Source: Candidatus Eiseniibacteriota bacterium
GTDB lineage: Bacteria; Eisenbacteria; RBG-16-71-46; CAIMUX01; VGJL01
Reading direction: 5' to 3'
Assembly (NCBI GenBank): GCA_963792585.1
Contig: CAWBWI010000001.1
Span: forward strand, 1,760,001 to 1,824,000
Length of the DNA stretch: 64,000 nt
Part shown: positions 8,628-31,089 of the stretch, piece by piece
How positions within the stretch are numbered: the first letter of the stretch is position 1
Layout: each line of letters opens with the position of its first letter
The notes under the pieces: model-generated
Databases searched by the model: none
Seen by the model: only the letters and a program-made list of their open reading frames with translations
What the model was told of the DNA's origin: nothing
Position numbers and translations under genes: made by a program

Positions 8628-11600
8628 ATGATGCTCCCAGCAGGCTTCCGCATAGTGTCGCCTCGTGTCGAAAACCCATGCGGCGCGAGTTGGCCCACCC
8701 GTCTCCCAAGCACCTTTCGGGTCAGCCTGTTCCTCCTCCTCGCGATCACCCTCCTCGTCTCTTGTGGCGAGGATGGGCCGTCCAAGCCCGAGCCTGAGGT
8801 CAAGTGCGCGACACCAATCTTCGCTCCCCTACCCGGGACGTTCGCGGCGGCGACGAATGTGACGATTACCTGCGCCACGGTCGGTGCCACAATTCGCTAC
8901 ACGACCGACGGAACGACGCCGGTGGAGGCCTCGCCGCTCTACACCCATCCCGTGGCCATCGCGGCGACCTCCACGCTCGAGGCCCGCGCATGGCGGGACG
9001 GCTTCGACCCGAGCGATGTGGCGACGGGGATCTACACGATCACCGGTGGCTCGTGCAGCATCGGCGTGACGGCTCCAAACGGTGGGGAGCAGTGGATCCT
9101 CGGCACCGCGCAGACGATCGCCTGGGGCAGCAACCAGTGCGGCCCGAACGTGAAGATCGAATTGCTGCGCGAGGGCGCCTCCTGCCTGACGATCGCCGAG
9201 AGTACACCCAACGATGGGGATTACGAATGGACCGCGGCTCGCTGCGGAGGCGTCTCCTTCGACTACGAGGTCCGCGTCACGGATCTGACGAGCGGCTTCC
9301 AGGACACGAGCAATGACCCGTTCGAGATCGTGGAGAGCTGCGCGGTCCAGGTTCTCTCCCCCAACGGCGGCGAGACGTGGACGGTCGGGACCTCGCACGA
9401 CATCGCCTGGGCGTCGCGCGAAGCATGTGGAACCGACGTTCGCATCGAGCTTCTCCTCGCCGGTATCCCGTGCGACACCCTGGCCGAGGCGACGGAGAAC
9501 GACGGCAGCTTCGCCTGGGTCGCGGCGCGATGCGGCACGCCGACGAGCGGGTATTCCGTTCGCGTGACCGACCTGGATAGCGGCGTCACCGACCCGGGGG
9601 ACGCATCCTTCTCGCTCCCCGATCCCGCCTGCGACATCTCGGTCCTCGCACCCAACGGCGGAGAGTCGTGGGACGAGGGATCCGCGCAGGAAATCCGCTG
9701 GCGGGCGCTGGACTGCGGCCCGTCCGTGCGGATCGAAATGCTGCGCGCCGGAGATCTGTGCAAGACCATCGCGGACAGCACGGAGAATGACGGGAGCTTC
9801 GCGTGGACCGCGGATCGCTGCGGTTCGGTGAACGACGGCTACACGGTTCGCGTGACGGATCGCGCATCCTCTACAAACGACCTCAGCGACGACGCCTTCT
9901 CGATCCCGGGCCCTCCCTGCACGCTGACGATCCTCTCCCCCAACGGCGGCGAGAGCTGGGAAGAAGGGACGGATCACGAGATTACTTGGACATCCAACGC
10001 GTGCTCCCCCCCGCTCATCATCGATCTGTTTCACGGCGGGGAGCTCTGCCGAAGGCTCTCGGTCGGTGAGCCAACCGAGGGCACCTTCACCTGGAGAGTC
10101 GAGCGGTGCGGGGGCGCGACGGAAGGCTACACGATCCGCCTGGCAGGCTCGGGCGCAGTCGACACATGCGACGCGCCGTTCGCGATCACCCCGGCCGCGG
10201 TGCCGTGCGTGCTGACGGTCACCGCGCCGGAAGCGGGCGAGATCCTCTGGAAGGGCTCACGGGAGACGATCCGGTGGACGGCCTCGAACTGCGGCTCGCT
10301 CGCCCGTCTCGATTTGCTCTGCAATGGAGTCGTCTGTGGCCAGATCACTGACGGCACCGGCAACGCGGGTTTCTATGAGTGGCCGGTGTTCGATTGCTGC
10401 GCGGACACATGCGCCCACTCGATCCGCGTGACCGACCTCGCAAGCAACAATCCGGCGGAGAGCGCAACGTTCTGCATCCGCACCTGCACGGTGGCCGTTA
10501 CGTCGCCGGCCGGTCAAGACCAATGGACCGCGGGTGAAGAGCATACGATCGCCTGGAGCACGGAGGGGTGCGGGTCCGAGGTCCGGATCGAGCTGTGGAC
10601 GGAAGAGGAATCGCTCTGCCGCACGATCGCCGAGCGGACGGACAACGATGGCTCCTTCCCGTGGACCGTCGCATCGTGCCTCTACGACAACACGGGATAC
10701 CAGGTCGTCGTCGCCGATTTGACCAGCGGCTCTGCGGCGGCCTCGGAAGGATTCACCATCCTCGAACCGAATCCCTGCATCCTGAACGTCCTCTCCCCCA
10801 ACGGCGGCGAGCGGTGGCCGGCCGGATCGGTCCACCCGATCACCTGGAGCCGATCTGCCTGCGGCGCGAACGTCCGCATCGATCTCGTCCGGCAGGGGGC
10901 GGAATGCCTGACCCTGGCCGCGAGCTCGCCGAACTCGGGCTCGTTCGAGTGGACGGTCGCCGCCTGCGGGCCCGATTCGACCGACTACCGGATCGCGATC
11001 ACCGACATCGAATACGGCGTCTCGGATCAGAGCGATGCGGTCTTCGCGATTCCATCCTGTGAGATCGCTCTCGATGCGCCCGTGGGCGGCGAGCGCTGGC
11101 CCGACGGCTCCGAGCAGATGATCGCCTGGCATTCCTCCGGCGCGTGCGACGGCCCGGTGCGGATCGATCTGCGCTGCAACGATCAGGACTGCCGGACCAT
11201 CGCCGCGAGCACGGAAGACGACGGCGCCTTCGCATGGACGGTCGACGCCTGCTGCACGGCCCCTTGCGACCACCGGATCCGCGTCACGAACCTCGCTACG
11301 GGATCGTCCGTGGAAAGCCCGGCGGTCTTCTGCATCTGCCCGCCGTGCGCTCCAGCCGTCGTCGCACCGAACGGCGGCGAGAAATGGAAGGCAGGGACGG
11401 TGCGCGCGATCACTTGGAGCGCGGCGGACTGCGGCGCGTCGGTGACGATCGATTTGCTGCGGAACGGCCTGCCATGTCACACGATCGCCTCGGCAGCGCC
11501 AAACAACGGGTCCTACTCATGGACGGTCGAGGGCTGCGCGGGAGAACCCAATGGATACGCGATCCGCGTCACCGGCGTCTGCGACGCTGCCGACGAGAGC

Positions 11601-13508
11601 GACGCGACCTTCACGATTCCGGAGTGCCTGGTGAGCGTGACCTCGCCCGCTCCCGGCGTCACGTGGGATCCGGGAGGCGCGCACGACATCACGTGGACAT
11701 CGAGCGCGTGTGGCGGAACGGTACGGATCGAACTCCTGAAGGGCGGCAGCCTCTGTTCCACGCTCGCGGAGGAGACACCCGACGACGGGATCTTCAACTG
11801 GACCGCGCAAACATGCGCGGGCGGCAACGGTTGCGACTACCTGATCCGCATCGTCGATATCGAGACCGGCCGCGCCGGCGAGATGGACGGCTTCTTCTGC
11901 ATCTGCCCTCCCTGTCCGCCGATCGTGGTCTCCCCGAACGGCGGCGAAAGCTGGCAAGAGGGGTCGGGGTTCGACATCGTCTGGACGCCGTCCTCCTGCG
12001 ACACGGCGGTCAAGGTCGAACTGACCCGGGACGGGTCGGTCTGCGACACGATCAGCGCGGGCACGCCCAACGACGGGCTGTTCCACTGGACGGCCGCACG
12101 CTGCGGCACCGCGACGGCCGGCTACCGCGTCCTCGTTACCGGGCTCGACTGCGGGCAGAGCGATTCCGGCAACGCGGACTTCGCGATCCCGCCGATGCCG
12201 TGCGCGCTCGAACTCACCTCGCCGGACGGAGGCGAAAGCTGGAGCCGCAACACCACCCACCTGATCCGCTGGGATACGGCAGGAGACTGTGGCGACCACG
12301 TGAAGATCGAACTCCTCCACAGCGGTGTTCCGTGCCTGACCATCGCGGAGTCGACGTCCAACGACGAGACCTATAGCTGGGCCGCGGCGACCTGCGGTGA
12401 CGACGAAACGGACTATGCGATCCGCTTGACGGAACTGACCGGGAACAAGACGAGCCAGAGCGCAGCACCATTCTCGATTCCGATATGCAGGCTGACGGTC
12501 ACGGCCCCCAATGGCGGCGAGACCTGGGTGGCGGAAACGCAGCAGACGATCACATGGGATCCGAACGCTGCATGTGGATCGACGGTTCGGATCGAGCTCC
12601 TGCGCGGCGGGATCTCATGCGAAACCATCGATGGAGCGGCGCCAAACACGGGCACCTACTCCTGGATTGCGCAGAACTGTAACGGCCATGCCGACGGCTA
12701 CCGCATTCGCGTGACCGACACGGCCACCGGCGCGACCGACGCGAGCGACGCCGATCTGCAGATTCCAACTCCCCCGTGCTCCATCCTCGTGACCGCCCCC
12801 AACGGCGGCGAAAACTGGACTGAGGGCTCCGTGCACTCGATCACCTGGACCCCGGCACACTGCGGCGAGACCGTGCAACTCGAGCTGGTGAAGGATGGCT
12901 CCCCATGCGGTGTGATCGCGGCTTCCGCACCAAATACGGGCAGCTTCTCATGGAACGTGGAGTCGTGCGTCGGCACGCCCGGCGCATGGAAGATTCGGGT
13001 GACCGATCTCGCCTCGCAGGCATTCGACGAGAGCAACCTGGCATTCCAGATCGCGACATCGCCCGACGCGTACATCCTCCCGCAGAACCTCTCCGTCTGC
13101 AGGGGCACGCAAAACGTCGAGATCCTCGTCCGGGGAAGGAATAGTCAAGCCCTCCAGGGCTACGGGGTGAGTCTCTGCTACGATACGGCCGTGTTCATCT
13201 GCGCAGGGATCTCCCTTGCCGATACGCGCGGCAGCGGCGCCTCCTACTTCGAGAACGATTGCGGATCCGGCTGCGCACGCGCGGGCGCGATCATCTCCAA
13301 CGCCTGTCCGCCCCAGGTCGACGCGGGGGACGGTCCGCTCCTGAAACTCACGCTGCACGTGAAGGCAGATGCCCCGCTCGGGACCACGACCCTCGATCTG
13401 AGAAACGTCGATCCCTCGACCAATACCATGGCGAGATGCGGCGGCGCGGGGATCGATCCTACCCTGCTCGACGGCCGGGTCACGATCTGCGGAGGGACAT
13501 CCCGATGA
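8628..13508 (+). CDS. Giant Cys-rich surface lipoprotein: Fn3-associated/chitobiase-C-like domain, 14 Ig-like (PNGGExW) repeats, C-terminal cohesin-like domain
   Basis: Lipobox LLVSC; 'ATPIFAP..GTF...TIRYTTDGTTP' domain; 14 repeats of about 95 aa; terminal 'GYGVSLCYDTAVF...GDGPLLKLTLHVKADAPLG...LLDGRVTI' is cohesin-like. Start codon uncertain. Confidence 0.8.
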   Translation: MMLPAGFRIVSPRVENPCGASWPTRLPSTFRVSLFLLLAITLLVSCGEDGPSKPEPEVKCATPIFAPLPGTFAAATNVTITCATVGATIRYTTDGTTPVEASPLYTHPVAIAATSTLEARAWRDGFDPSDVATGIYTITGGSCSIGVTAPNGGEQWILGTAQTIAWGSNQCGPNVKIELLREGASCLTIAESTPNDGDYEWTAARCGGVSFDYEVRVTDLTSGFQDTSNDPFEIVESCAVQVLSPNGGETWTVGTSHDIAWASREACGTDVRIELLLAGIPCDTLAEATENDGSFAWVAARCGTPTSGYSVRVTDLDSGVTDPGDASFSLPDPACDISVLAPNGGESWDEGSAQEIRWRALDCGPSVRIEMLRAGDLCKTIADSTENDGSFAWTADRCGSVNDGYTVRVTDRASSTNDLSDDAFSIPGPPCTLTILSPNGGESWEEGTDHEITWTSNACSPPLIIDLFHGGELCRRLSVGEPTEGTFTWRVERCGGATEGYTIRLAGSGAVDTCDAPFAITPAAVPCVLTVTAPEAGEILWKGSRETIRWTASNCGSLARLDLLCNGVVCGQITDGTGNAGFYEWPVFDCCADTCAHSIRVTDLASNNPAESATFCIRTCTVAVTSPAGQDQWTAGEEHTIAWSTEGCGSEVRIELWTEEESLCRTIAERTDNDGSFPWTVASCLYDNTGYQVVVADLTSGSAAASEGFTILEPNPCILNVLSPNGGERWPAGSVHPITWSRSACGANVRIDLVRQGAECLTLAASSPNSGSFEWTVAACGPDSTDYRIAITDIEYGVSDQSDAVFAIPSCEIALDAPVGGERWPDGSEQMIAWHSSGACDGPVRIDLRCNDQDCRTIAASTEDDGAFAWTVDACCTAPCDHRIRVTNLATGSSVESPAVFCICPPCAPAVVAPNGGEKWKAGTVRAITWSAADCGASVTIDLLRNGLPCHTIASAAPNNGSYSWTVEGCAGEPNGYAIRVTGVCDAADESDATFTIPECLVSVTSPAPGVTWDPGGAHDITWTSSACGGTVRIELLKGGSLCSTLAEETPDDGIFNWTAQTCAGGNGCDYLIRIVDIETGRAGEMDGFFCICPPCPPIVVSPNGGESWQEGSGFDIVWTPSSCDTAVKVELTRDGSVCDTISAGTPNDGLFHWTAARCGTATAGYRVLVTGLDCGQSDSGNADFAIPPMPCALELTSPDGGESWSRNTTHLIRWDTAGDCGDHVKIELLHSGVPCLTIAESTSNDETYSWAAATCGDDETDYAIRLTELTGNKTSQSAAPFSIPICRLTVTAPNGGETWVAETQQTITWDPNAACGSTVRIELLRGGISCETIDGAAPNTGTYSWIAQNCNGHADGYRIRVTDTATGATDASDADLQIPTPPCSILVTAPNGGENWTEGSVHSITWTPAHCGETVQLELVKDGSPCGVIAASAPNTGSFSWNVESCVGTPGAWKIRVTDLASQAFDESNLAFQIATSPDAYILPQNLSVCRGTQNVEILVRGRNSQALQGYGVSLCYDTAVFICAGISLADTRGSGASYFENDCGSGCARAGAIISNACPPQVDAGDGPLLKLTLHVKADAPLGTTTLDLRNVDPSTNTMARCGGAGIDPTLLDGRVTICGGTSR
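9054..13055 (+). repeat. 14 tandem intragenic repeats of about 285 bp (Cys-rich Ig-like, Kre9/KNH1-N-like)
   Basis: Recurring C-x5-PNGGExW-x3-5-IxW-x4-C-xx-VxIEL-x4-C-xxIA-xxx-NDGxFxW-x3-C-x5-YxIRVTD. Confidence 0.85.
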
Positions 13509-16500
13509 GAACGATCCTCGCGTTCATGACCCTGCTCCTCCTCGGCGGAACCCAGGTCCACGCCGGCCGCAACGCCAACGGCGCGATGATCGTCCACACG
13601 AGCGATGCGGTCGTTTTCACGTCGACCGGCGACTACTGCGGCGCCCTGTACAACAACCCCGGCACCTGCGGGGCGGCCGGAACACGGACCGACAAGTCGG
13701 AGGACGATCCAGCGGTCATCTGGTTCGTCGCGGCCTTCCTGAACACAGCGAGCCCCGCGGTGACGGGGGTCCAGTTCGGGATCGAGCACAATCTGCCGCC
13801 CGGCGCGGGGGCCTTTGCGAAGTTCGGCGCCTGCGGGACCGGCGTCCTCGAGTTGCCGGAAGACGGATGGCCGGAGACGGCGTTCGGAAACACCATCACC
13901 TTCAGTAGCGCATCGACCTCGAAGCTCTTCCCTTTCTACTACTTTGCGGCCTATGGATTCGCGGGCGCGTACGTCGGGACCGGCGTGAGCCCGAACCTGG
14001 GGCACGCTTTGTTCACCGACGATGCCAACCCGCCCGGGGAAGACAACTGCTACAATTTCGGCCGGGTCCTCTGGCACCAGACCGGATTCAACGAGTGCCC
14101 CACCACACCGACATGCCAGGTCACGGTCACCTCGCCCAACGGCGGGGAGATCTGGACTGAAGGATCGGTGCACACGATCACCTGGAGTTCATCGGGTTGC
14201 GAGGGTCCCGTCCAGATCGACCTGATCCGGACCGACGGCCTGGCCTGCGAGACGATTGCCGTCGATGCGCCGAACTCCGGCGCGTACGGCTGGGTCGCCC
14301 AGAATTGCCTGGGAGGAAGCGGAAGTTACAAGATCCGTATCACGGATCTGCGCAGCGGCCGGATGGACGAGAGCAACCAGAGCTTCTTCGTTCCCGACGC
14401 CCCCGCCTGCCTGATCACCGTCATCGCCCCCGACGGCGGCGAGACGATCGACCAGGGAGGCTCATACGAGATCACATGGGGATCGACGCTGTGCGGTGCG
14501 AATGTGAAGATCGAACTGATCCAATACGGCAGTGTTTGCGCAACGCTCTCTGCATCGACCCCGAACGACGGCAGCTTCCTCTGGACGGCGCAGCCGTGCG
14601 CGGGGATGTGCGGGTACAAGATCCGCGTCACCGACTTCAGCTCGGGTGCGGCCGACGAGTCGGCCGAGGAGTTCTGCTTCCGCCCCTGCGCGCCGCACGT
14701 GGACGCGCCCAACGGGGGCGAGGAGTGGATCGCAGCGACCGAGAACGAGATCCGGTGGTCACCCGGCGCTTGCGGCGCGACCGCGAAGATCGAACTTCTC
14801 CGCAATGGGATCGTCTGCTCGACAATCGCGGCCGGCACTCCCAACGACGGAAGCTTTCTCTGGAGCGCCCAGCCGTGCGCGGGCGCGTCCGACGGCTACC
14901 GGATCCGGATCACGGACCTCTCCGGCGACGGGAAGGACGAGAGCGACGCCACCTTCCGGATCCTCTCATGCGAACTCGCCGTAACGGCCCCCAACGGGGG
15001 CGAGAGCTGGCAAGCCGAGAGCGTGCAGACGGTCACCTGGACGGCGAATCATTGCGGGGGCGACGTCCGGATCGAGCTCCTGCGCAGCGGCGTGGTCTGT
15101 GCCACGCTTGCCGCGAGCACTCCGAACGACGGGAGCTTCCTCTGGACGGTGGCCCAATGCGCGGGAAACCGGACCGACTACCGGATCCGGATTACCGACT
15201 TGCGCGGGGGCCTGCTGGACGAGAGCGACGCGGTGTTCAGCATCCCCGATCCCGCATGCACCATCCATGTGACGGCCCCGAACGAGGGCGAGAGCTGGAC
15301 CGAAGGTCTCCCGCACGACATCACATGGACTTCCGCCCACTGCGGCGGGACGGTGAAGATCGAACTCCTCTTGAACAACACGGTCTGCGCAACCATCAGC
15401 GCGAGCACCCCTGACGATGGGCTCGTGACGTGGACGGCGCAACGATGCGGCTCGGCGACGACGGGTTACAAGATCCGCATCACCGATCTGACCTTCGCCT
15501 CCGTGGATGAGAGCGACGTCGCCTTCTCGATTCCCGCCTGCCAGCTCACAATCACATCCCCGAGCGGCGGGAGTTGGGCCCCCGGATCGAGCCACTCGAT
15601 CGTTTGGACTTCCCAGGCATGCGGGAGCGCCGTCAGGATCGACCTGCTCCGCAACGGCTCCGTGTGCACGACGATCTCCGCATCCACCGCGAACGACGGC
15701 GAGTTCCTATGGACCGCCCAGCAGTGCACGTACGGCGTGAGTGGGTACAGGATCCGACTGACTGACCTCGCGACCGGGGAAACCGGCCAGAGCGAGTTGT
15801 TCTGCATCAGTTGCGACGACTTCTTCGCCATACCGGCGTCGACCGAGCTGACCGTCGGTCACACAAGTCTCACGATCCCGATCGAGGGCGGCAACGACAC
15901 GTCCATCCGCGCCTACTCGATCCGCGTCTGCTTCGATCCCGCCGTCCTCGAATGCACCGACCTCTCCCTTGCGGGCACGCGCGGAGCGGGGGCGTCGAAC
16001 TTCACGAAGTCGATCAGCGCCTCGTGCGCGACCGGCACCGTCACATTCTCACCGACATGCCCCCCACAGATCGCTCCCGGCACCGGTACCTACCTGAATT
16101 TGACCGTCAACGTGAAGCCGACCGCACCCCTCGGTCCGACGACGCTGACGTTCACCGGCGGGATCCCACCGTCGACGTCGATGACGACGTGCGCCGGAAC
16201 GCTGATCGGTCTCTCCCTGCAGAGCGGATCGATCACGATCGTCCCCGAGAAGTTCCGCCGAGGCGACGACAACGCGGACGGCCTCTGGGACATTGCCGAC
16301 CCGGTCTATTGCCTGGACTCTCAGTACGGCGGAGGCCCGCTTCCTCCGTGCCGAGACGCAGGCGATTTCGACGACTCGGGGCGATATGACATCGCCGACT
16401 GCGTGGCGAATCTTTGCTGGCAGTTCGGCAATTGCAGCGCTCCGCCGCCCCCCTTCGCGTCATGCGGGGCCGACCCCACGACCGGAGACGCGCTCGGCTG

Positions 16501-17257
16501 CGCTCACTACGCCGCCTGCGGTAACGAGATCCCGACCGCCCTGAGCGCGCCCGAGACGAATCCCGGCTGCCGGATCTCCCTCGGCGCGATCTCCTATGCA
16601 GGATGGGACTCGCTCATCGTGCCGATTCGCTTGACGAGTCCCATGGACATCGTAGCGCTGCAGTACACGATCGCCTACGACCCGGCCACGCTGACCTTCA
16701 CGGGTCTCGACCGGTCAGAGGTCCCGTTCGACTTCTATGCGGCGCGACCCGATCCACAGGGGGGTCGAGCGCTCGCGGGCGCCGTCCCCGACCTGGGCCT
16801 CACCGTTCCGCTCGCGCCGGGAGAGCACGGGATCGGGCGGCTGGTCTTCGTGGTTTCCGATCCGGCCCGGCTCGAGGCCGGACGGATCGACATCGGCGAT
16901 GTGCGCGTGATCGGCGTCGATCGGGTCGCACGGGCTGGTGAAGGAGCGAGCGTGACGGCGGCCGGAGCGCCCGCGGCGGCAAGCGCACCCCGACTTCGGG
17001 TGGCCAATCCGTATCGGCCGGGCGATGCGATTCTTCTCGATCTCCCCGAAGCTGCGCTCGCGAACGTCGCCGTATTCAACGTCTCGGGTCAGAAGGTGCG
17101 CACGATCTTCGGCGATGAGGATCTCCGCCGCGGCCGCCACTCCCTCCGGTGGGACGGGAAGACGGAATCGGGCGGGGACGCCGGCACGGGAATCTACTAC
17201 ATCCGCGCGATGGTCGGGCCGCGCATGGTGGGTCGCAAGATCACGTTGATTCGCTGA
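13505..17257 (+). CDS. Secreted modular protein: N-terminal unknown domain, 6 Ig-like repeats, cohesin, dockerin-like, second cohesin-like, FlgD-Ig domain
   Basis: ATGA overlap with the upstream gene; signal peptide MRTILAFMTLLLLGGTQVHA; dockerin-like 'FRRGDDNADGLWDIAD...DAGDFDDSGRYDIAD'; cohesin-like 'VCFDPAVL' and 'LQYTIAYDPATLTF'; C-terminal 'FNVSGQKVR...WDG...GIY'. Confidence 0.8.
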   Translation: MRTILAFMTLLLLGGTQVHAGRNANGAMIVHTSDAVVFTSTGDYCGALYNNPGTCGAAGTRTDKSEDDPAVIWFVAAFLNTASPAVTGVQFGIEHNLPPGAGAFAKFGACGTGVLELPEDGWPETAFGNTITFSSASTSKLFPFYYFAAYGFAGAYVGTGVSPNLGHALFTDDANPPGEDNCYNFGRVLWHQTGFNECPTTPTCQVTVTSPNGGEIWTEGSVHTITWSSSGCEGPVQIDLIRTDGLACETIAVDAPNSGAYGWVAQNCLGGSGSYKIRITDLRSGRMDESNQSFFVPDAPACLITVIAPDGGETIDQGGSYEITWGSTLCGANVKIELIQYGSVCATLSASTPNDGSFLWTAQPCAGMCGYKIRVTDFSSGAADESAEEFCFRPCAPHVDAPNGGEEWIAATENEIRWSPGACGATAKIELLRNGIVCSTIAAGTPNDGSFLWSAQPCAGASDGYRIRITDLSGDGKDESDATFRILSCELAVTAPNGGESWQAESVQTVTWTANHCGGDVRIELLRSGVVCATLAASTPNDGSFLWTVAQCAGNRTDYRIRITDLRGGLLDESDAVFSIPDPACTIHVTAPNEGESWTEGLPHDITWTSAHCGGTVKIELLLNNTVCATISASTPDDGLVTWTAQRCGSATTGYKIRITDLTFASVDESDVAFSIPACQLTITSPSGGSWAPGSSHSIVWTSQACGSAVRIDLLRNGSVCTTISASTANDGEFLWTAQQCTYGVSGYRIRLTDLATGETGQSELFCISCDDFFAIPASTELTVGHTSLTIPIEGGNDTSIRAYSIRVCFDPAVLECTDLSLAGTRGAGASNFTKSISASCATGTVTFSPTCPPQIAPGTGTYLNLTVNVKPTAPLGPTTLTFTGGIPPSTSMTTCAGTLIGLSLQSGSITIVPEKFRRGDDNADGLWDIADPVYCLDSQYGGGPLPPCRDAGDFDDSGRYDIADCVANLCWQFGNCSAPPPPFASCGADPTTGDALGCAHYAACGNEIPTALSAPETNPGCRISLGAISYAGWDSLIVPIRLTSPMDIVALQYTIAYDPATLTFTGLDRSEVPFDFYAARPDPQGGRALAGAVPDLGLTVPLAPGEHGIGRLVFVVSDPARLEAGRIDIGDVRVIGVDRVARAGEGASVTAAGAPAAASAPRLRVANPYRPGDAILLDLPEAALANVAVFNVSGQKVRTIFGDEDLRRGRHSLRWDGKTESGGDAGTGIYYIRAMVGPRMVGRKITLIR
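14114..15810 (+). repeat. 6 tandem Cys-rich Ig-like repeats of the same family as in the upstream gene
   Basis: Repeat starts CQVTVTSPNGGEIW, CLITVIAPDGGE, CAPHVDAPNGGEEW, CELAVTAPNGGESW, CTIHVTAPNEGESW, CQLTITSPSGGSW. Confidence 0.85.
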
Positions 17258-17268
17258 AACATGCGTCG

Positions 17269-17298
17269 CGACCGGCGTTCCGTCCGGGGCGCCGGTCG
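17269..17298. terminator. Hairpin between convergent genes
   Basis: CGACCGGCG...CGCCGGTCG inverted repeat between the stops at 17257 and 17334. Confidence 0.4.
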
Positions 17299-17333: not shown

Positions 17334-17912
17334 TCAGCGGTAGAGAGTCCGGACCCTCCCCCAGCTGACCACCACTGTCGGATCCACGTCGCTCGTCGGG
17401 AGCAGGATCAAGTCGAGGCAATCCAGGCGTGTGCGCATCGAACCATCGCCTCCATCGATGCTCCACTTCACGACGTAGGCGCCGGGGTCGAGAGCGATCG
17501 GTTCCGTCGACTGGACCCAGTCGTAGGCGGCGCTCTCTCAGCTCACACCGGATCCGGGGACCGTGACGAGCGTTACGCTCGCGACGGGTGTCTCCAAGGG
17601 TTCACTCAGGTAGTCCATCCGGAAGGTGCGGACGTAGCCGATCGCCCCCGCGCTTCGGAGTGCGGTCAAGAACACCGCCCTCGAACTGAGCGAGAGGTGG
17701 AGCTTGATCCACTCCCCATCGCAGTCGACACCATCCACGCCGTATCCCCCGGATGCCTCCGAGCAGGCCACGACTCCAATGGCCATACCGCAATCGGCGA
17801 TCTGACCATTGCTGTAGAAGCTCTCGGCCTCGATTCGCTGCGTTGTCCCCGAGGAGGTGACAGGAGAGAGAAGGAGAAGGATGACCCATGCGGGCCGAAG
17901 GTGGCGTGCCAT
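17334..17912 (-). CDS. Secreted CBM6/35-like protein with in-frame UGA at codon 125; candidate selenoprotein (192 aa)
   Basis: GGAGGT RBS, signal peptide, 'QRIEAESF...DGEWIKL'. The frame continues past TGA (17538-17540) for 67 codons and ends SWGRVRTLYR*. SECIS-like hairpin follows the TGA. Confidence 0.7.
17508..17523 (-). promoter_or_regulatory. Putative bacterial SECIS element
   Basis: mRNA UGA-GAGAGCGCCGCCUA-CGACUG-GGUC-CAGUCG: 6-bp perfect stem with a G-led GGUC loop 20 nt after the UGA. Confidence 0.6.
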
Positions 17913-18015
17913 ACATACCTCCGCGAAAGAGGATAGCACGTCCGTCAAGCCGTCGCCATGGTGTCAGGATGCGAAGCTCGGTGAGAGGCGGGCGGCAACC
18001 GGCGAATCGAGCAGA

Positions 18016-19264
18016 TTACTCGTACCGTAGCGCATCGATCGGATGCAGCCGCGAAGCCCGAACCGCCGGGAGCAAACCGAACACGACCCCTACCACCGTG
18101 CAGAACAAGAGCCCGATCACGGCCCATTCCATTGGGACCTTCGCCGCAAACTGCGTAAACACCGTGACGAGGTTGCCCAGTCCGAATCCGACAAGGACCC
18201 CGATGACCCCACCGATGTTGCACAGAATGACCGCCTCGAGCAGGAACTGAGCCAGAATGCTCTGCGGCTTGGCCCCCAGGGCCTTGCGGATCCCGATCTC
18301 TCTGGTCCGTTCCGTAACCGCGACGAGCATGATGTTCATGATGCCGATCCCCGCGACCATCAGCGCAATGGTGCCGATGATGAAGGCGGCGATCTTGACC
18401 CCCTGACTCATCCTGTTGAATTGCGTGATCAGGCTCTGACTGCTGAAGAACTCGAAGTTGTCCGGCTCGTTCGGTCTCAAGCGACGTTCGTGCCGCATCA
18501 CGCGTCGCGTCTGCTCCATAGCGTCTTCGGTCAACTCCGGCGTCTTCGCTCGCACCGTGATGTTGACGGAGCGTGGGAAACCGTCCTTGTTCACCATGCC
18601 GTAGGTCTTGACGAAGGTCGTCACCGGGATCAGGACGTAGTTGTCGAAGTTCCCTCCGAAGGCCGACTTCTTCTCATCGAAGACCCCGATGACCTCGTAC
18701 TTGCGTCCGTCCACGCGGACGGCCTTTCCGATCGGATCGATGAACGGGAACAGCTTCTTGCCGATCGCATACCCGATGACGGCCACGTTGCGGGCGCTCC
18801 GAACATCCATCTCGGAGATGTTCCGTCCGATCCCGACCGCGTGGGTGTTGTTCGGCGCGTATTCGGGAGTCCCCCCGACGATCGCGAGGTTCGGATTGGT
18901 GGTCTCCCCCTTGTATTCCGCGCTGAATCCGAATTCCCAGATTTCGGAACCGACGAGGTCGACGGTCGAGACCTGTTCTCGGATCGCCGCGGCGTGCTCC
19001 AAAGTGATCGGTGGCCGGTTCCGTGCCCTCCGGCGTTGCTCATCGGAGTTGAACCCGCCCGCGGGCCATTTCTGCACCTGGAAGACTTGGGCGCCCAGGA
19101 CGCTCATCTCCTTCTCCATGGTGCCTTGCACCACCGAGATTGCGGTCATGACGGCGATGATCGAGGCGACGCCCGCGATGATCCCCACCAAGGTCAGGAT
19201 CGACCTCAACCTGTTGGTCAACAATGCGCCCCCAGGACATCGAGAGGATGTCAAAGGGGAGCAC
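18016..19264 (-). CDS. ABC transporter permease (MacB/FtsX family); frameshift near 19231
   Basis: [53 protein letters not shown] start after AGGAGG; removing one base from the 5-base run at 19229-19233 restores MLPFDILSMSWGALLTNRLRS. Confidence 0.85.
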
Positions 19265-19287
19265 GACGCACCCTCCTGATCGCGGAG

Positions 19288-20557
19288 CTACTCATAGCGC
19301 AAGGCCTCGATCGGATCCATTCTGGCTCCCCGGTAAGCCGGGCGCCACTCCCGCCACCACGCCGACCGTGACCGACACAAGAACCGCGACGACCAAGATC
19401 GGGATCGAGATGCTCGCCGGCATCAACACCGCATTGACTACCAGGGTGAGAATCCAGGCCAGGCAGATTCCGACCACTCCCCCGAGCAGGCAGATGGATG
19501 CCGACTCGATGAGAAACTGGAGCAGGATGCTCCTTCGGGTGGCGCCGATCGCCTTGCGGACTCCGATCTCTCGCGTGCGCTCGGTGACGGAGACGAACAT
19601 GATGTTCATGACGCCGATCGCGCCCACGAACAATGAGATGCTCGTCACCAACAGCCCCACCAGGAGAACGACGCCCATGACGTTGTTGAAGGTGCCCACC
19701 AGGGTGTCGAGCTTGTTGATGGAGAAGTTGTCGGGTTCCGCGGGACGGAGGTTGCGAATCTTCCGCATCTCCCCGATCACCTCGTACTCGAGATCCCCCA
19801 TCGCCTCCTGAATCGGGGCCTTGACCGCGACGTTGACGTCCTCGCCCCCATGGCCGCCGGAGAACGCACTCACGTAGGAGGTGATGGGAATGAAGATCTG
19901 CCGGTCGAAATTCGGTCCACCCAGGAAACTTCCTCCCTGCTTCTCCATCACGCCGACGATACGAAAGTCGGCGCGGCCGATCTTGATCGACTTGTTCATC
20001 GGATCGGCAGTTCCGAAGAGTCCGTCCCGCACATCGGTTCCGATCACGCACACCCTTCTCTTGAAGGCAACGTCGAACGGCATGAGGAACCGGCCGGCCT
20101 GGGGTTGGGCGCTGGACATGCGCACCTGTTTGTCGGTAGTCCCAATGACGCTCACGTTCTCCATGATCTCCGAGCGGTGTTTGACGTCGCGTCGCCCTTC
20201 GATGGACGGATTGACCAGGGCCCTTCCGCGCATCCTCTTCTCCAGGACTCGGGCCTCGCGGAGATCGATGTTGGGGCGATTGCGGTAGAGAAAGAAGTCG
20301 TTCATGGTCACCCACGGCACGCGGGAGACATAGAGCACGTCCGTGCCCACGGCCGAGAAGCTCTCGCGGAATCTGTCACGCAGTCCGTTGACAGCGGTCA
20401 TGGTGAGCACGACCGCCACGATCCCGATGATGATTCCCAGGGTGGTCAGAGCGCCGCGGACCTTGTTGGCGCGGATTGCGTCGAACGCGATCCGGAGGGA
20501 CGTCCCGATATCGACGGCGGCCCTCATCCTCAAGCGACCCTGGGCGCGCTCATGCAT
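19288..20557 (-). CDS. ABC transporter permease (MacB/FtsX family); frameshift near 19341
   Basis: [39 protein letters not shown]. Removing one base at 19340-19342 restores the canonical end [17 protein letters not shown]. Start approximate. Confidence 0.85.
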
Positions 20558-21330
20558 TCGTCTCCTCCGTCGCCAGGACGCGGGAACGAGTGGAGGCGTC
20601 TCCACGCGCACGGTGATCCCGTTGCGACGTCGGATTCGATCCTCCCGTCCCGCAAGCGGACGATCCGCTTTGCGTGCGTGGCGATATACTGCTCGTGCGT
20701 GACGAGGATGATGGTCTGGCCCGACTCGTGGAGGCGGTCGAACATCTCCATGATCGCATCCCCGGTCTTGGTGTCGAGATTCCCCGTCGGCTCATCGGCC
20801 ACGATGATGGCGGGATTGGTCACGAGCGCCCGTGCGATGGCCACCCTTTGCCTCTGACCTCCCGAAAGCTCGTTCGGCCGGTGCCGCATCCGATCCGCCA
20901 GTCCGACCCTCTCCAGGGCCTCCTCAGCCCGCCGTCGTCTCTCCGCCTTCGCCACCCCTGCGTAGATCATTGGCAACTCGACGTTGGTCAGGATGTTTGC
21001 GCGCGGAAGCAGATTGAACGTCTGGAAGACGAAGCCGATTCGGCGATTGCGAATCTCCGCAAGCTCCGCCTGCGACATCTCGGCCACCATCTGCCCTTCG
21101 AGATGGTAGGTTCCCGACGTCGGCACATCCAGGCAGCCGATGATGTTCATGAGGGTCGATTTCCCGGAGCCCGACGGACCCATGATGGCGACGTACTCGT
21201 TGCGGGCGACGTCGAGGGAGATGCCGTCCAAGGCGAAGACGCGCTCGGCGCCCACGAGGTAGCACTTGACCACGTCCCGGAGCGCGAGGAGGACCGCGCC
21301 CCCTGTGCGATCAGAAGGCCCGCTCGCCAT
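20530..21330 (-). CDS. ABC transporter ATP-binding protein (LolD/MacB-type)
   Basis: Walker [10 protein letters not shown], signature LSGGQRQR, Walker [14 protein letters not shown]-loop VTHE. Confidence 0.92.
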
Positions 21331-22584
21331 TGGCCTCTTCCCGTCCCGGCGCCTTTCGCTCGTTGTTGATGGTCACCATTCCCCCGTTCTCCAGGTCGCG
21401 GGAAATGGCCCGATAGCTGCCGGAGACGACCTCTCCACCCTCCGCGAGGCCGTCGAGAATCTCGATGAACTCGTCGCTCTGGATGCCGGTCTTGACCTGG
21501 GTGGCGATCGCCTTGCCCTTCTCGACGCGAAAGACGATCTCGACGAACCCGTCCTCGTCCGCCTTGAAGTGCTTCTCTGCGTCCTCGCGCTTCTCCCCCT
21601 TCATCATGAGCTGGTCGAGGGTGCGGACCGCAACGCTCTGCAGCGGTACGCAAAGGGCGCTCTCGTTGGTCTTGGTGATGATCTCCGCACTCGCCGTCAT
21701 GCCGGGACGAAGGGCCGGGGGGGACTGGAAATCGCTATCTTGATCTCGAATTCCGTCTTCTGCTCCAGCGTGCCGGCGGCCCCGATGTTCGCGCTGTTGG
21801 AGATCTCGCTGACCAGACCGCGCAACTCGGTGCCGGGCATCGCATCGACCGCGATCTCGGCTTCCTGTCCGAGGGCGATGGTGACGATGTCATTCTCGTC
21901 GACATTGACCTGGGCTTCCATGGCCGAGAGATTGGCGATGACCATGATCACGTCCTTCTGGAACTGAGATCCGAGGGCAATCTCTCCTTGTTCTTTGTTC
22001 AGGGCGCTCACGGTACCCGACATCGGAGCATAGATGCTGGTCTTCGACAGGTCGGCCTGCGCCTGCTTCAGCGTGGCCTTGGCCTGCGCCACTTGGTCCT
22101 GGGCGGCCTTGTAGCGAGCGGCCTCGACCAGATAGGTGGACTCCTTCGCTTCGAAGTCTGACGGGGACTCCAGCCCGCTGGACTTGAGCTGCTGGGAGCG
22201 CTTGAATTCCTTCTCGGTTCGGTCCAAGTTCCAGCGGACCAACTCGGCGGACGCTTCTGCGGAGTGGACATTCGCTTCCGCGCTCTCGACCGCAGCGCTG
22301 TAGCGCTCACGGTCAAGCCCGACGAGGAAGGTCCCCTTCTCGACCCACTGCCCCTCGATCACGGGAAGCTGTGTGATCTTCGCGCTGACATCTGCGCTGA
22401 TCTCCACCTTGGTCTTTGGCTGGATCTTCCCGGTGGCGCTGACTTTCTGCACGATCTTGTTTCGATCGACTTTCGCCGACTGGACCTCAAGTGGCTTCGC
22501 GCCGCGTGTGCGGTAGACCACACCCGCCGCAACCCCGGCTACGACCACGATCGCAACGCCGATCAACATGTGCTTCCGCTTCAT
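21311..22584 (-). CDS. Efflux periplasmic adaptor subunit (MacA-like membrane fusion protein); frameshift at the G7 run 21717-21723
   Basis: N-terminal TM, lipoyl-like halves, coiled coil, [15 protein letters not shown]. Adding one base gives ...[16 protein letters not shown], joining the two track ORFs. Confidence 0.85.
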
Positions 22585-23439: not shown

Positions 23440-24264
23440 ATGAAGATCGGCGCGATCGCTCTCCTGTTCCTATCGATCGCGGTCAGCGCCTTTGCTGGGT
23501 CCGACCGGGTCCAGGCTCCTGGCCCCGTGGACCTACCCGGGGCGCGCGACGCATTCTACTGCCAGACGACATCCATTGACTGGAACGCCTTGAACGCGTC
23601 CAGCGGTTTCAGCAGCGAGTTGGTGGACGACATCCCCGATGCCTACGCAGGTTACTCAGTGAGTGACGTCACGTTCTACGTTGCGGAATGGAGCGGCGGC
23701 TGGACGCCATTTACCAGCATGACGGTCAACTTCTACACCGCGTCGTGCCCGCCGCACCAGACCGCGGACTTTTCATTCGAGGTGCCCTATTGGATGTGCA
23801 CGGTTGAGCAGGTCTACGCGGGCAACTGGTTCGTCTACAGCGTCCTCGTTCCTCTGCCTACAGTGATCACGATTGAAACGATGACGTCGATCGGTGGAGT
23901 CGTGAACCAAGACTGGGGCCAGAATCCCCCGTACTGCGGTCTCGTGATCTGCGACGCAGTTGCCGACTGCGGTGGCTACGTTGCTGGCGACTACTGGGGT
24001 TATCCTCGTTGGACCCCCCTCTCGTCCATTATGGGATACGACGTGGACGTCGCGTACTGCCTCAGCTATACAGGTATAGGCGGCGGCGGTACGTACGGTG
24101 CGTGCTGCTTCGCAGATGACCACTGCGAAATGCGGAGCGGGGAAGGCTGCGGGAGCGACGGTGGCCAGTTCCAGGGGGACGGCACATCCTGCGACCCGAA
24201 CCCCTGCCTCCCGAGCCCGGCGAAGAGCACGACCTGGGGTCAGATCAGGGGCACCTATCGGTAG
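23440..24264 (+). CDS. Secreted hypothetical protein with GACC Cys module and C-terminal TWG tail
   Basis: GGAGGT RBS, signal peptide MKIGAIALLFLSIAVSAFA, GACCFADDHC...CDPNPC, ends STTWGQIRGTYR. Confidence 0.8.
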   Translation: MKIGAIALLFLSIAVSAFAGSDRVQAPGPVDLPGARDAFYCQTTSIDWNALNASSGFSSELVDDIPDAYAGYSVSDVTFYVAEWSGGWTPFTSMTVNFYTASCPPHQTADFSFEVPYWMCTVEQVYAGNWFVYSVLVPLPTVITIETMTSIGGVVNQDWGQNPPYCGLVICDAVADCGGYVAGDYWGYPRWTPLSSIMGYDVDVAYCLSYTGIGGGGTYGACCFADDHCEMRSGEGCGSDGGQFQGDGTSCDPNPCLPSPAKSTTWGQIRGTYR

Positions 24265-30093: not shown

Positions 30094-31089
30094 CTACCGG
30101 AACATGAACTTGATCGCGCCCCAGGAGTTGCTCCGAGTAGGAACAGAACCGCAGTACCAGCGGACGCCGACCGAGTCGGGGCTAGGCGTGCAACGATTGC
30201 CCGGCCCTGACCACGAGGCGTTCGTGTATTGCCCGTCGGAACCATCGATGCTGAAGCGGGTGTTGCAGGCGCTCTCTGTGGCGTGGGCACAGCGTCGCTC
30301 ATTCTCGTCAATGGCGAGCGAATAGCAGCACGCGGCGCAAACGATCGCCCCGCACACCGTGTTGTCCCCCGCATAGATGCCCTCATAGACACCGTAGGCA
30401 TCTTCGCAAGTCTCCTGGTTGACTTCCTGAACGCAGCCGCCCCAACTCGTGCAGCAGGCTCCGGTGGGGAGCGGGATGAAGACGGGGCAGATGTTGCTGC
30501 CCTCGACACCCCACCGGACAACTCCGAAGTCGGTGATCAAGTCCTCACGAGGAGGGCTTCCATTGTCGACGAAGACCGCGCGGCCGTCCCCGGGGTAGAC
30601 CGTGGTACCGAACTCGTTCGACTGCCCGTCCTTCCCGAGTACGGCGAACCAGTAGAAGGGCCAGATGTGGTCGGTCCGCGCCTCCAGGTATCCCACGAGG
30701 TTCCCTCGCCCGACATCCGGAAAGCCATCCTCCGGAAGCTCCAAGGAGACACCCGGGCCACACGCCGCACTCGCAACTACAAGACCCTGTCCGGCCGGGA
30801 GATTGGTCTCGATTCCGAACTGGACCGCCATCACCTCGGGTGAGGTCGTTGGGTCGAACGCGGCAAGAAACCAGATGATGGCTTCATCGGTCTCAGGGGC
30901 TTTGTGAGTGGTCGTCACGAGTTCTTCGCACGTCATCGGAAGCGCGTTCGCGCAATAGTCGGTCGAGGTGTAGTAGACCGCGCTGTCGTCCGTGTGGACC
31001 AGCATCGCTCCATCTCTGTTCCTGCCGGCGAGTGCGGGGGCGCTACAGACGGCACACATTGCCAGGGCCACAGGCAATAGCGGTTTCAT
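30094..31089 (-). CDS. Secreted Cys-rich protein: 'AGRNxxGAMxVHT' domain, GACC modules, SWG tail
   Basis: Signal peptide; N-domain clearly similar to that of 13505..17257; ends SNSWGAIKFMFR. Confidence 0.8.
   Translation of the reverse strand: MKPLLPVALAMCAVCSAPALAGRNRDGAMLVHTDDSAVYYTSTDYCANALPMTCEELVTTTHKAPETDEAIIWFLAAFDPTTSPEVMAVQFGIETNLPAGQGLVVASAACGPGVSLELPEDGFPDVGRGNLVGYLEARTDHIWPFYWFAVLGKDGQSNEFGTTVYPGDGRAVFVDNGSPPREDLITDFGVVRWGVEGSNICPVFIPLPTGACCTSWGGCVQEVNQETCEDAYGVYEGIYAGDNTVCGAIVCAACCYSLAIDENERRCAHATESACNTRFSIDGSDGQYTNASWSGPGNRCTPSPDSVGVRWYCGSVPTRSNSWGAIKFMFR

Follow-up and report, generated by a model that had tools for sequence, protein, structure and literature searches.

According to a 2026 review, the bacterial selenoproteome is mostly thioredoxin-like (PMC13188914). 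The bacterial SECIS (bSECIS) model given there combines a loop of 3-9 nt, a stem of 4-16 bp and a G in the first two loop positions at 16-37 nt from the UGA (PMC13188914), with a folding energy of at most -7.5 kcal/mol (PMC13188914). Selenocysteine (Sec) is found outside the cytoplasm in the ABC substrate-binding proteins SaoB/SaoX, in GOS_C (NF045500) and in a TonB-dependent receptor of the FCYXU type, and in these proteins the Sec is either paired with Cys or a proposed metal ligand (PMC13188914). A different kind of protein also bears on what follows. In carbohydrate-binding modules of family 6 (CBM6), sugar is bound in cleft A by the stacking aromatics Tyr34 and Trp92 together with Asn120 (PMC10284105).

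Here we describe a gene that brings these two kinds of protein together. It lies in a 64,000-nt stretch of a Candidatus Eiseniibacteriota genome, the whole of which we call the window, and it is predicted to encode an exported selenoprotein with a CBM6-like fold. With described bacterial genes whose SECIS lies in the coding region it shares the in-frame UGA, the G-led loop of 4 nt, the 6-bp stem and the 20-nt spacing (PMC13188914), and also the presence of SelA, SelB, SelD and tRNA-Sec and of both TGA and Cys homologues. It differs from them in belonging to neither a thioredoxin-fold nor a metalloenzyme family. The SaoB/SaoX, GOS_C and FCYXU proteins, which resemble it in the predicted location of the Sec, have a different fold and no sequence match to it. 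The features of the gene are listed in Table 1.

Table 1. Features of the putative selenoprotein gene, in window coordinates
Feature	Position	Strand	Basis
CDS, 192-aa putative exported selenoprotein, UGA = Sec at codon 125	17334..17912	-	Frame and full-length homology
Shine-Dalgarno-like GGAGG	17918..17922	-	5 nt before ATG, seen in sequence
Signal-peptide-like N-terminus, residues 1 to about 22	17847..17912	-	Basic start, hydrophobic core; by eye
CBM6-like beta-sandwich, residues 23 to about 170	17403..17846	-	Predicted
In-frame TGA, predicted Sec125, within conserved GxGxxU motif	17538..17540	-	Homologue alignment
Bacterial SECIS-type hairpin CGACUG-GGUC-CAGUCG, within CDS, encodes Y-D-W-V-Q-S	17508..17523	-	Conservation
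Cys50, kept in 107/119 aligned rows, predicted Sec125 partner	17763..17765	-	Covariation and cleft mapping
Cys41 and Cys64, covarying, probable structural disulfide	17721..17792	-	Alignment rows
C-terminal tail ...SWGRVRTLYR, probable export/sorting signal	17337..17381	-	Recurrence in genome and domain exchange

A preliminary description of this DNA, which did not state the strand, had proposed that the frame stays open beyond the TGA at which the called gene ends. Read with table 11 on the minus strand, the frame indeed runs from the ATG at 17912-17910 through the TGA at 17540-17538, which is codon 125, to a final TGA at 17336-17334. The 67 codons beyond TGA125 end in SWGRVRTLYR and bring the product to 192 aa, as opposed to the 124 aa given by gene callers. 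This downstream part had been taken to be coding, and it scores at least as well as the part upstream of the TGA (dicodon score 0.34 vs 0.26; GC3 0.84 vs 0.77).

All four genes of the Sec machinery named in the preliminary description are present in the genome (5.4 Mb in 7 contigs, 84% complete): selA and selB both exceed their cut-offs, selD itself contains an in-frame TGA, and selC, the tRNA-Sec, is the sole tRNA with a TCA anticodon among 57. Given that no other tRNA has this anticodon and that the gene itself terminates at a TGA, genome-wide recoding is as unlikely as had been supposed. The machinery is widespread among relatives. selA was found in 180 of the 201 genomes of the class, a tally that includes the unpublished genome G079, which may also be counted in the class (201) and phylum (206) denominators. 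It is present in 18 of the 20 class genomes that bear the family, the other two (G001 and G149) having selB, and in 13 of 14 genomes tested from other phylum-level groups.

The family is large and mostly annotated as if it ended at the UGA. A first protein search gave eight matches, including the protein called for the window gene itself, and in all of them the last residue is the one that precedes the UGA. Clustering at 50% identity gives 137 representatives. Of these, 97 terminate at GxGx(1-3), 94 of them exactly two residues after GxG; these were counted by protein end, and the stop was confirmed as TGA wherever the DNA was fetched. Twelve representatives are full length and six are downstream halves called as separate genes, with eight of other kinds and 14 long repeat proteins that were left out of the alignment. 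The 20 clusters that we looked up are unnamed or labeled ‘hypothetical protein’. With about a hundred clusters stored as hypothetical or unnamed proteins ending at the UGA, this amounts to a systematic annotation gap.

Within the whole phylum, 21 of 206 genomes have a match, and the 26 matches comprise 23 with one TGA, two with Cys (TGC) and one shortened form that skips to the tail. A second copy in the genome studied here, a paralogue on contig C5, likewise contains a TGA. In a second phylum-level group, all 18 genomes carry the family (36 of 41 matches with one TGA); in a third, 28 of 31 do (36 of 37 matches); and in a fourth, 32 of 201 sampled genomes do (38 of 43 matches, with one more having TGA and TAA). 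Altogether, the four groups yielded 107 distinct genes in which this site is a TGA, from 26, 30, 20 and 30 fetched loci that represent only part of the matches. As the preliminary description had anticipated for a true selenoprotein, homologues have TGA or Cys in the same column, followed by conserved sequence.

These data lead us to conclude that UGA125 is almost certainly translated as selenocysteine, judging from the genomics. The opposing reading is that UGA125 is a true stop, or a Trp or Cys codon, such that the locus represents a 124-aa protein, a pseudogene, a sequencing error or general recoding. It would agree with the product given by gene callers, and Trp is the usual residue near this position in the CBM6 loop. 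A true stop would remove the last sandwich strands as well as the tail, and it is hard to square with the 107 distinct genes, drawn from four phylum-level groups, that align a TGA with this one and go on into conserved coding sequence. Trp at this codon is contradicted by the full-length homologues, all 12 of which have Cys and none Trp, and general recoding by the tRNA and final stop described above. We therefore regard this opposing reading as highly improbable.

Sec and Cys forms of the family are intermingled. The Cys forms are scattered on a quick tree, which implies nine changes, at least three of them forced by strong branches. Cys versions also occur in Sec-capable genomes (G019, and G149, which has selB and selD), and Sec is therefore not essential to the protein. 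There are tandem arrays of two or three Sec copies as well as Sec/Cys pairs. Because such natural pairs exist, side by side in the G019 genome, what Sec adds could be tested in a small soluble protein. Several variant loci were also noted. At L078/L079 and L092/L093, three tandem Sec copies, the first of them close to the window gene, adjoin a membrane protein similar, on inspection by eye, to the glycosyltransferase-like neighbors of L059, L060, L072 and L017. The shortened form (L044 / L127, genome G064) lacks the Sec loop and later strands while keeping the tail, and may be an internal deletion or an assembly artefact. Fused forms (P0036, P0060, P0062; L045; L020) comprise Ig-domain proteins ending in GSGCC before the site, which would have a CCU motif if read through, and fusions to Cys-rich repeats or FN3 domains.

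The preliminary description reported a perfect hairpin, CGACUG-GGUC-CAGUCG, whose loop begins 20 nt beyond the UGA, and this is what we find. The same GGUC occurs in the SECIS loop of Escherichia coli fdhF. The window hairpin fits the bSECIS model in its loop of 4 nt, stem of 6 bp, leading G, distance of 20 nt and energy of -12.8 kcal/mol (over the 43 nt after the UGA). Hairpins of this strictness, defined as at least 6 Watson-Crick pairs capped by a G-led tetraloop at 14-26 nt from a TGA, follow just 300 of the 121,493 TGA triplets in the genome (0.25%). The folding energy relative to shuffled sequences is ordinary (z = -1.23, -0.07, -0.24 and -0.01 in four windows), the hairpin is missing from the minimum-energy fold of the two longer of these windows, and Rfam gave no SECIS match. 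The support for the hairpin thus comes from its conservation and not from its stability.

That conservation is considerable. In a protein-selected set from the phylum, each of the 22 distinct TGA contexts forms at least 6 stem pairs (G-U allowed) and has a G-led tetraloop at 17 or 20 nt, whereas the two Cys copies have only 1 and 3 pairs at the site. Codon choice in this segment follows the pairing. The Asp codon is GAC in all 21 copies with the DW-x-QS motif, compared to 64% genome-wide, and the Ser codon is TCG after TAC (18 copies) and TCC after TGG (three copies), a swap of C-G to G-C. The three copies with this compensatory swap belong to just two genomes, both of the same family, and may go back to a single event. 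In Cys homologues the YDWVQS peptide is eroded. In the other phylum-level groups the hairpin is mostly another one, whose loop is CGGGA and whose segment encodes VAGS/AAGS 20-26 nt from the UGA, meaning that position and shape are kept as sequence and peptide change. Under a looser test requiring at least 5 Watson-Crick pairs, 25/25, 30/32, 23/24 and 22/28 TGA rows pass in the four groups (rows that include duplicates and three mis-picked fourth-group sites), against 10.8% of random TGAs. From these comparisons, the hairpin is evidently selected as RNA. The idea of a covarying hairpin is upheld: TGA copies retain the structure, through a compensatory change in some of them, and Cys copies have lost it. 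It appears that the SECIS hairpin dictates a peptide motif, YDWVQS here and VAGS elsewhere, that vanishes in Cys copies. In the mechanism we propose, SelB would bind the GGUC hairpin 20 nt downstream of UGA125 and deliver Sec-tRNA.

We then consider the fold. Structure prediction and fold search give, with high confidence, a CBM6-like beta-sandwich, and the predicted protein has the jelly-roll sandwich of CBM6 / CBM35 modules (PDB 2cdo, 2cdp, 5fui, 1uxz; Pfam PF03422). No Pfam family exceeds its cut-off for the read-through protein or for four Cys homologues, and the cleft residues have been replaced; for these two reasons we call the protein CBM6-like and reject membership of CBM6 (PF03422). 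The CBM6/35-like sandwich of the preliminary description is thus retained as a fold and not as a family assignment. By sequence mapping, the Tyr position of cleft A is Gly61 in 111 of 118 rows, the Asn position is Arg/Lys162 in 28 of 29 rows, and the Trp loop now holds Sec125. Acidic residues are kept at E28 (105/118), E30 (104/118) and D164 (29/29), positions which may correspond to the structural calcium ligands of CBM6. The sugar-stacking cleft would have been rebuilt by the exchanges in it, which in the window protein put Gly61 in place of the Tyr, Arg162 in place of the Asn and Sec125 in the loop that normally holds the Trp. A thioredoxin-fold selenoprotein of the UxxC / CxxU type was considered and rejected, given the all-beta model, the lack of any Cys within 3 residues of Sec125 and the lack of a family match. 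The protein had been described as unlike the usual oxidoreductase selenoproteins, which is correct with respect to the thioredoxin fold, but a redox function is nevertheless quite plausible.

This possibility comes from the distribution of Cys residues. An equivalent of Cys50 is present in 93 of the 107 distinct TGA genes (88 by script and five read from the alignment), and none of these 93 has a Cys within 2-3 residues of the Sec. Of the 13 genes without Cys50, 11 have a Cys near the Sec (UxC, CxU or CxxU) and two have no Cys in the domain; the one remaining gene is cut by a contig end. The 11 genes with a near-Sec Cys come from three of the four groups and are not all independent. Once the covarying pairs Cys41/Cys64 and C80/C140 are set aside, Cys50 and Sec are the residues left over, and in several members they are the only two of this kind in the mature domain. 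This near-exclusive pattern of Cys50 versus near-Sec Cys is the main argument for a Se-S bond, and the proximity of Sec125 and Cys50 rests on sequence mapping and covariation. We think it likely that Sec125 and Cys50 both point into what was once the cleft and are joined there by a reversible selenenyl-sulfide. The most likely function of this pair would be as a redox site outside the cytoplasm, open to oxidants or to the thiols/disulfides of a ligand, and it would demonstrate the conversion of a binding cleft into a Se/S site. The whole chain up to a redox-active Se-S site is in our estimation probable, with the recoding alone much surer.

The same pairing data could be explained if Sec125 and Cys50 are ligands for a soft metal or metalloid (Cu, Hg, Ag or As), making the protein an exported scavenger or carrier that possibly feeds the redoxin-barrel protein described below. 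That neighbor has CxC/CxxC in its barrel part besides the redoxin CxxC, and metal binding is linked to several extracytoplasmic or transporter selenoproteins in the 2026 review (PMC13188914). Given that no His/Met/Cys-rich site is conserved beyond the Sec/Cys pair and no metal-resistance gene appears among the 65 neighboring ORFs scanned, we find a metal site unlikely. A purely structural Se-S bond, or one that gates a still functional lectin site built from new residues (Arg162, Asp63, Tyr130), would be consistent with the CBM6 fold and its conserved acidic E28, E30 and D164. Other Cys pairs are gained and lost freely: C41/C64 covary (both in 19 rows, neither in 97, only one in four), as do C80/C140 (both in 22, neither in two). 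A membrane glycosyltransferase-like gene is also a recurring neighbor (PIG-U match at one locus, E 6e-5). Against this, the stacking aromatics of cleft A are gone, with Gly at the Tyr position, and two Cys would make a purely structural bond at lower cost, whereas Sec prevails in the family (12 forms with Cys vs 97 proteins ending at the site) and the Cys forms are dispersed over the tree. The structural or lectin interpretation accordingly seems improbable to us, and we retain the reversible selenenyl-sulfide as the preferred reading.

A divergently oriented neighbor gene adjoins the family member in nine genomes, counting the C5 paralogue; its product combines a redoxin domain (WNRGCPxC) with a probable beta-barrel. 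In the C5 example (L073:2989-5220, G000:C5, minus strand), the barrel is probably of the outer-membrane type and has a CxC/CxxC loop that is conserved. This redoxin-barrel protein is DUF6029-like by Atlas features, and no NCBIfam model exceeds its cut-off for it. Close orthologues (>230 bits) occur in 16 of the 201 class genomes, 15 of which also have the selenoprotein family; five of the 20 family-bearing class genomes have none, and weaker relatives are found in 20 more class genomes. The window's own copy has no redoxin neighbor, and the redoxin-barrel gene stands beside just one of 16 checked loci strongly (in Eisenbacteria) and one weakly, being mostly absent from the loci of other groups. 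We tentatively suggest that in Eisenbacteria the Se-S site might be re-reduced by the redoxin-barrel protein, whose gene is so often head-to-head with it.

The window gene instead lies downstream of a MacAB-type ABC exporter cluster with the same orientation, and faces two large Kre9/Ig-repeat genes that are transcribed toward it, a context not seen at the other loci scanned. The exporter cluster (18016-22584, minus strand) encodes a membrane-fusion protein, an ATPase and two MacB/FtsX permeases and ends about 100 nt upstream; co-transcription with the selenoprotein gene is possible. The convergent genes, at 8628-13508 and 13259-17257 on the plus strand, encode two large Cys-rich exported proteins with Kre9/KNH Ig-like repeats and cohesin-like and FlgD-like C-terminal domains. 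A GC-rich inverted repeat lies between the convergent genes at 17269-17298 by eye, and was not flagged by the terminator scan.

Based on its termini, the protein is very likely exported beyond the inner membrane. The signal peptide would carry the product across that membrane and the short C-terminal tail would then sort it, with delivery to the surface or the medium by a T9SS-like route being somewhat the better guess. As previously noted, the tail is common to two other ORFs of the window, one ending at 24264 on the plus strand and one at 30094 on the minus strand. Genome-wide, the motif ends 98 ORFs, three of them in the window (24264, plus; 30094, minus; 17334, minus). It takes the form (S/T)WGxIKxxY, is about 15 residues long and matches no Pfam or NCBIfam model. 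In some homologues, a T9SS type A / FlgD-like C-terminal domain replaces the tail. Like T9SS cargo (TIGR04183), the window protein combines a putative signal peptide with a C-terminal element, and the homologue P0016 has TIGR04183 over its cut-off instead of the tail; the window protein differs in having no match to TIGR04183 or TIGR04131 (the type A/B domain). The tail is a candidate minimal sorting signal. Eight genes of the genome exceed the cut-off for the PorV family, and a fragmented SprA-like locus scores 156 bits, below its cut-off of 200. This SprA-like locus (C4:17198-21309) and an EF-Tu-like gene (G000:C3:1187450-1188582) each span several frames, which suggests frameshift errors in the assembly. 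Another ORF with the same tail, L075 (G000:C1:27449, minus strand), encodes a small exported Cys-rich repeat protein with a TGA at a Cys of the CxPNPC repeat and no strict hairpin; this TGA may be a nonsense mutation or another Sec candidate.

The suggestion that this could be a new family agrees with our searches. NCBIfam 20.0 and Pfam have no match for it, and Table 1 of the review, a catalogue of 119 families, lists none with a carbohydrate-binding-module fold (PMC13188914). In the main text of that review, the terms carbohydrate, lectin, secret-, periplasm and Eisenbacteria are absent (PMC13188914). A literature search, whose coverage of subscription journals was limited and which had supplements (deep-Sep Table S2, PMC12013277; bioRxiv) outside it, returned no paper on the family or the tail. 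The family is new, and the system to which it belongs, that of SECIS-decoded bacterial selenoproteins, is of a known kind. It adds a CBM6-like lectin fold and a predicted exported location to the bacterial selenoproteome. More speculatively, the gene may be the founding member of a large and old family, spread over four phylum-level groups and near-universal in two, in which a CBM was turned into a redox selenoprotein. Sec would have replaced the sugar-stacking loop, with Cys across the former cleft, and the protein would take part in a cell-surface relay with a dedicated outer-membrane redoxin-barrel protein. If true, this would be an extracytoplasmic selenium redox relay of a kind absent from the catalogue checked.

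Several more selenoproteins are likely in the same genome (G000), each with a TGA embedded in coding sequence and accompanied by a G-led hairpin. Labeled by eye, these are an AhpD-like protein with CAYU (C1:1449638+), a Prx-like protein with TPGU (C1:1644338+), a TlpA-like protein with UGPC (C3:1081711-), a rhodanese-like protein with CSU (C4:299833+) and three of UxxC type with long C-terminal parts (C6:968110-, 900851- and 742343-). Three further likely selenoproteins carry no family label (C1:242644-, C1:1373758- and C5:179642-). Finally, the locus L074 (G000:C2:244034, minus strand) has a 620-codon frame in which WPYTU and a CCGGCA-GGUC-UGCUGG hairpin are followed by a TlpA-like WCPPC domain, making it a signal-bearing multi-domain selenoprotein candidate.
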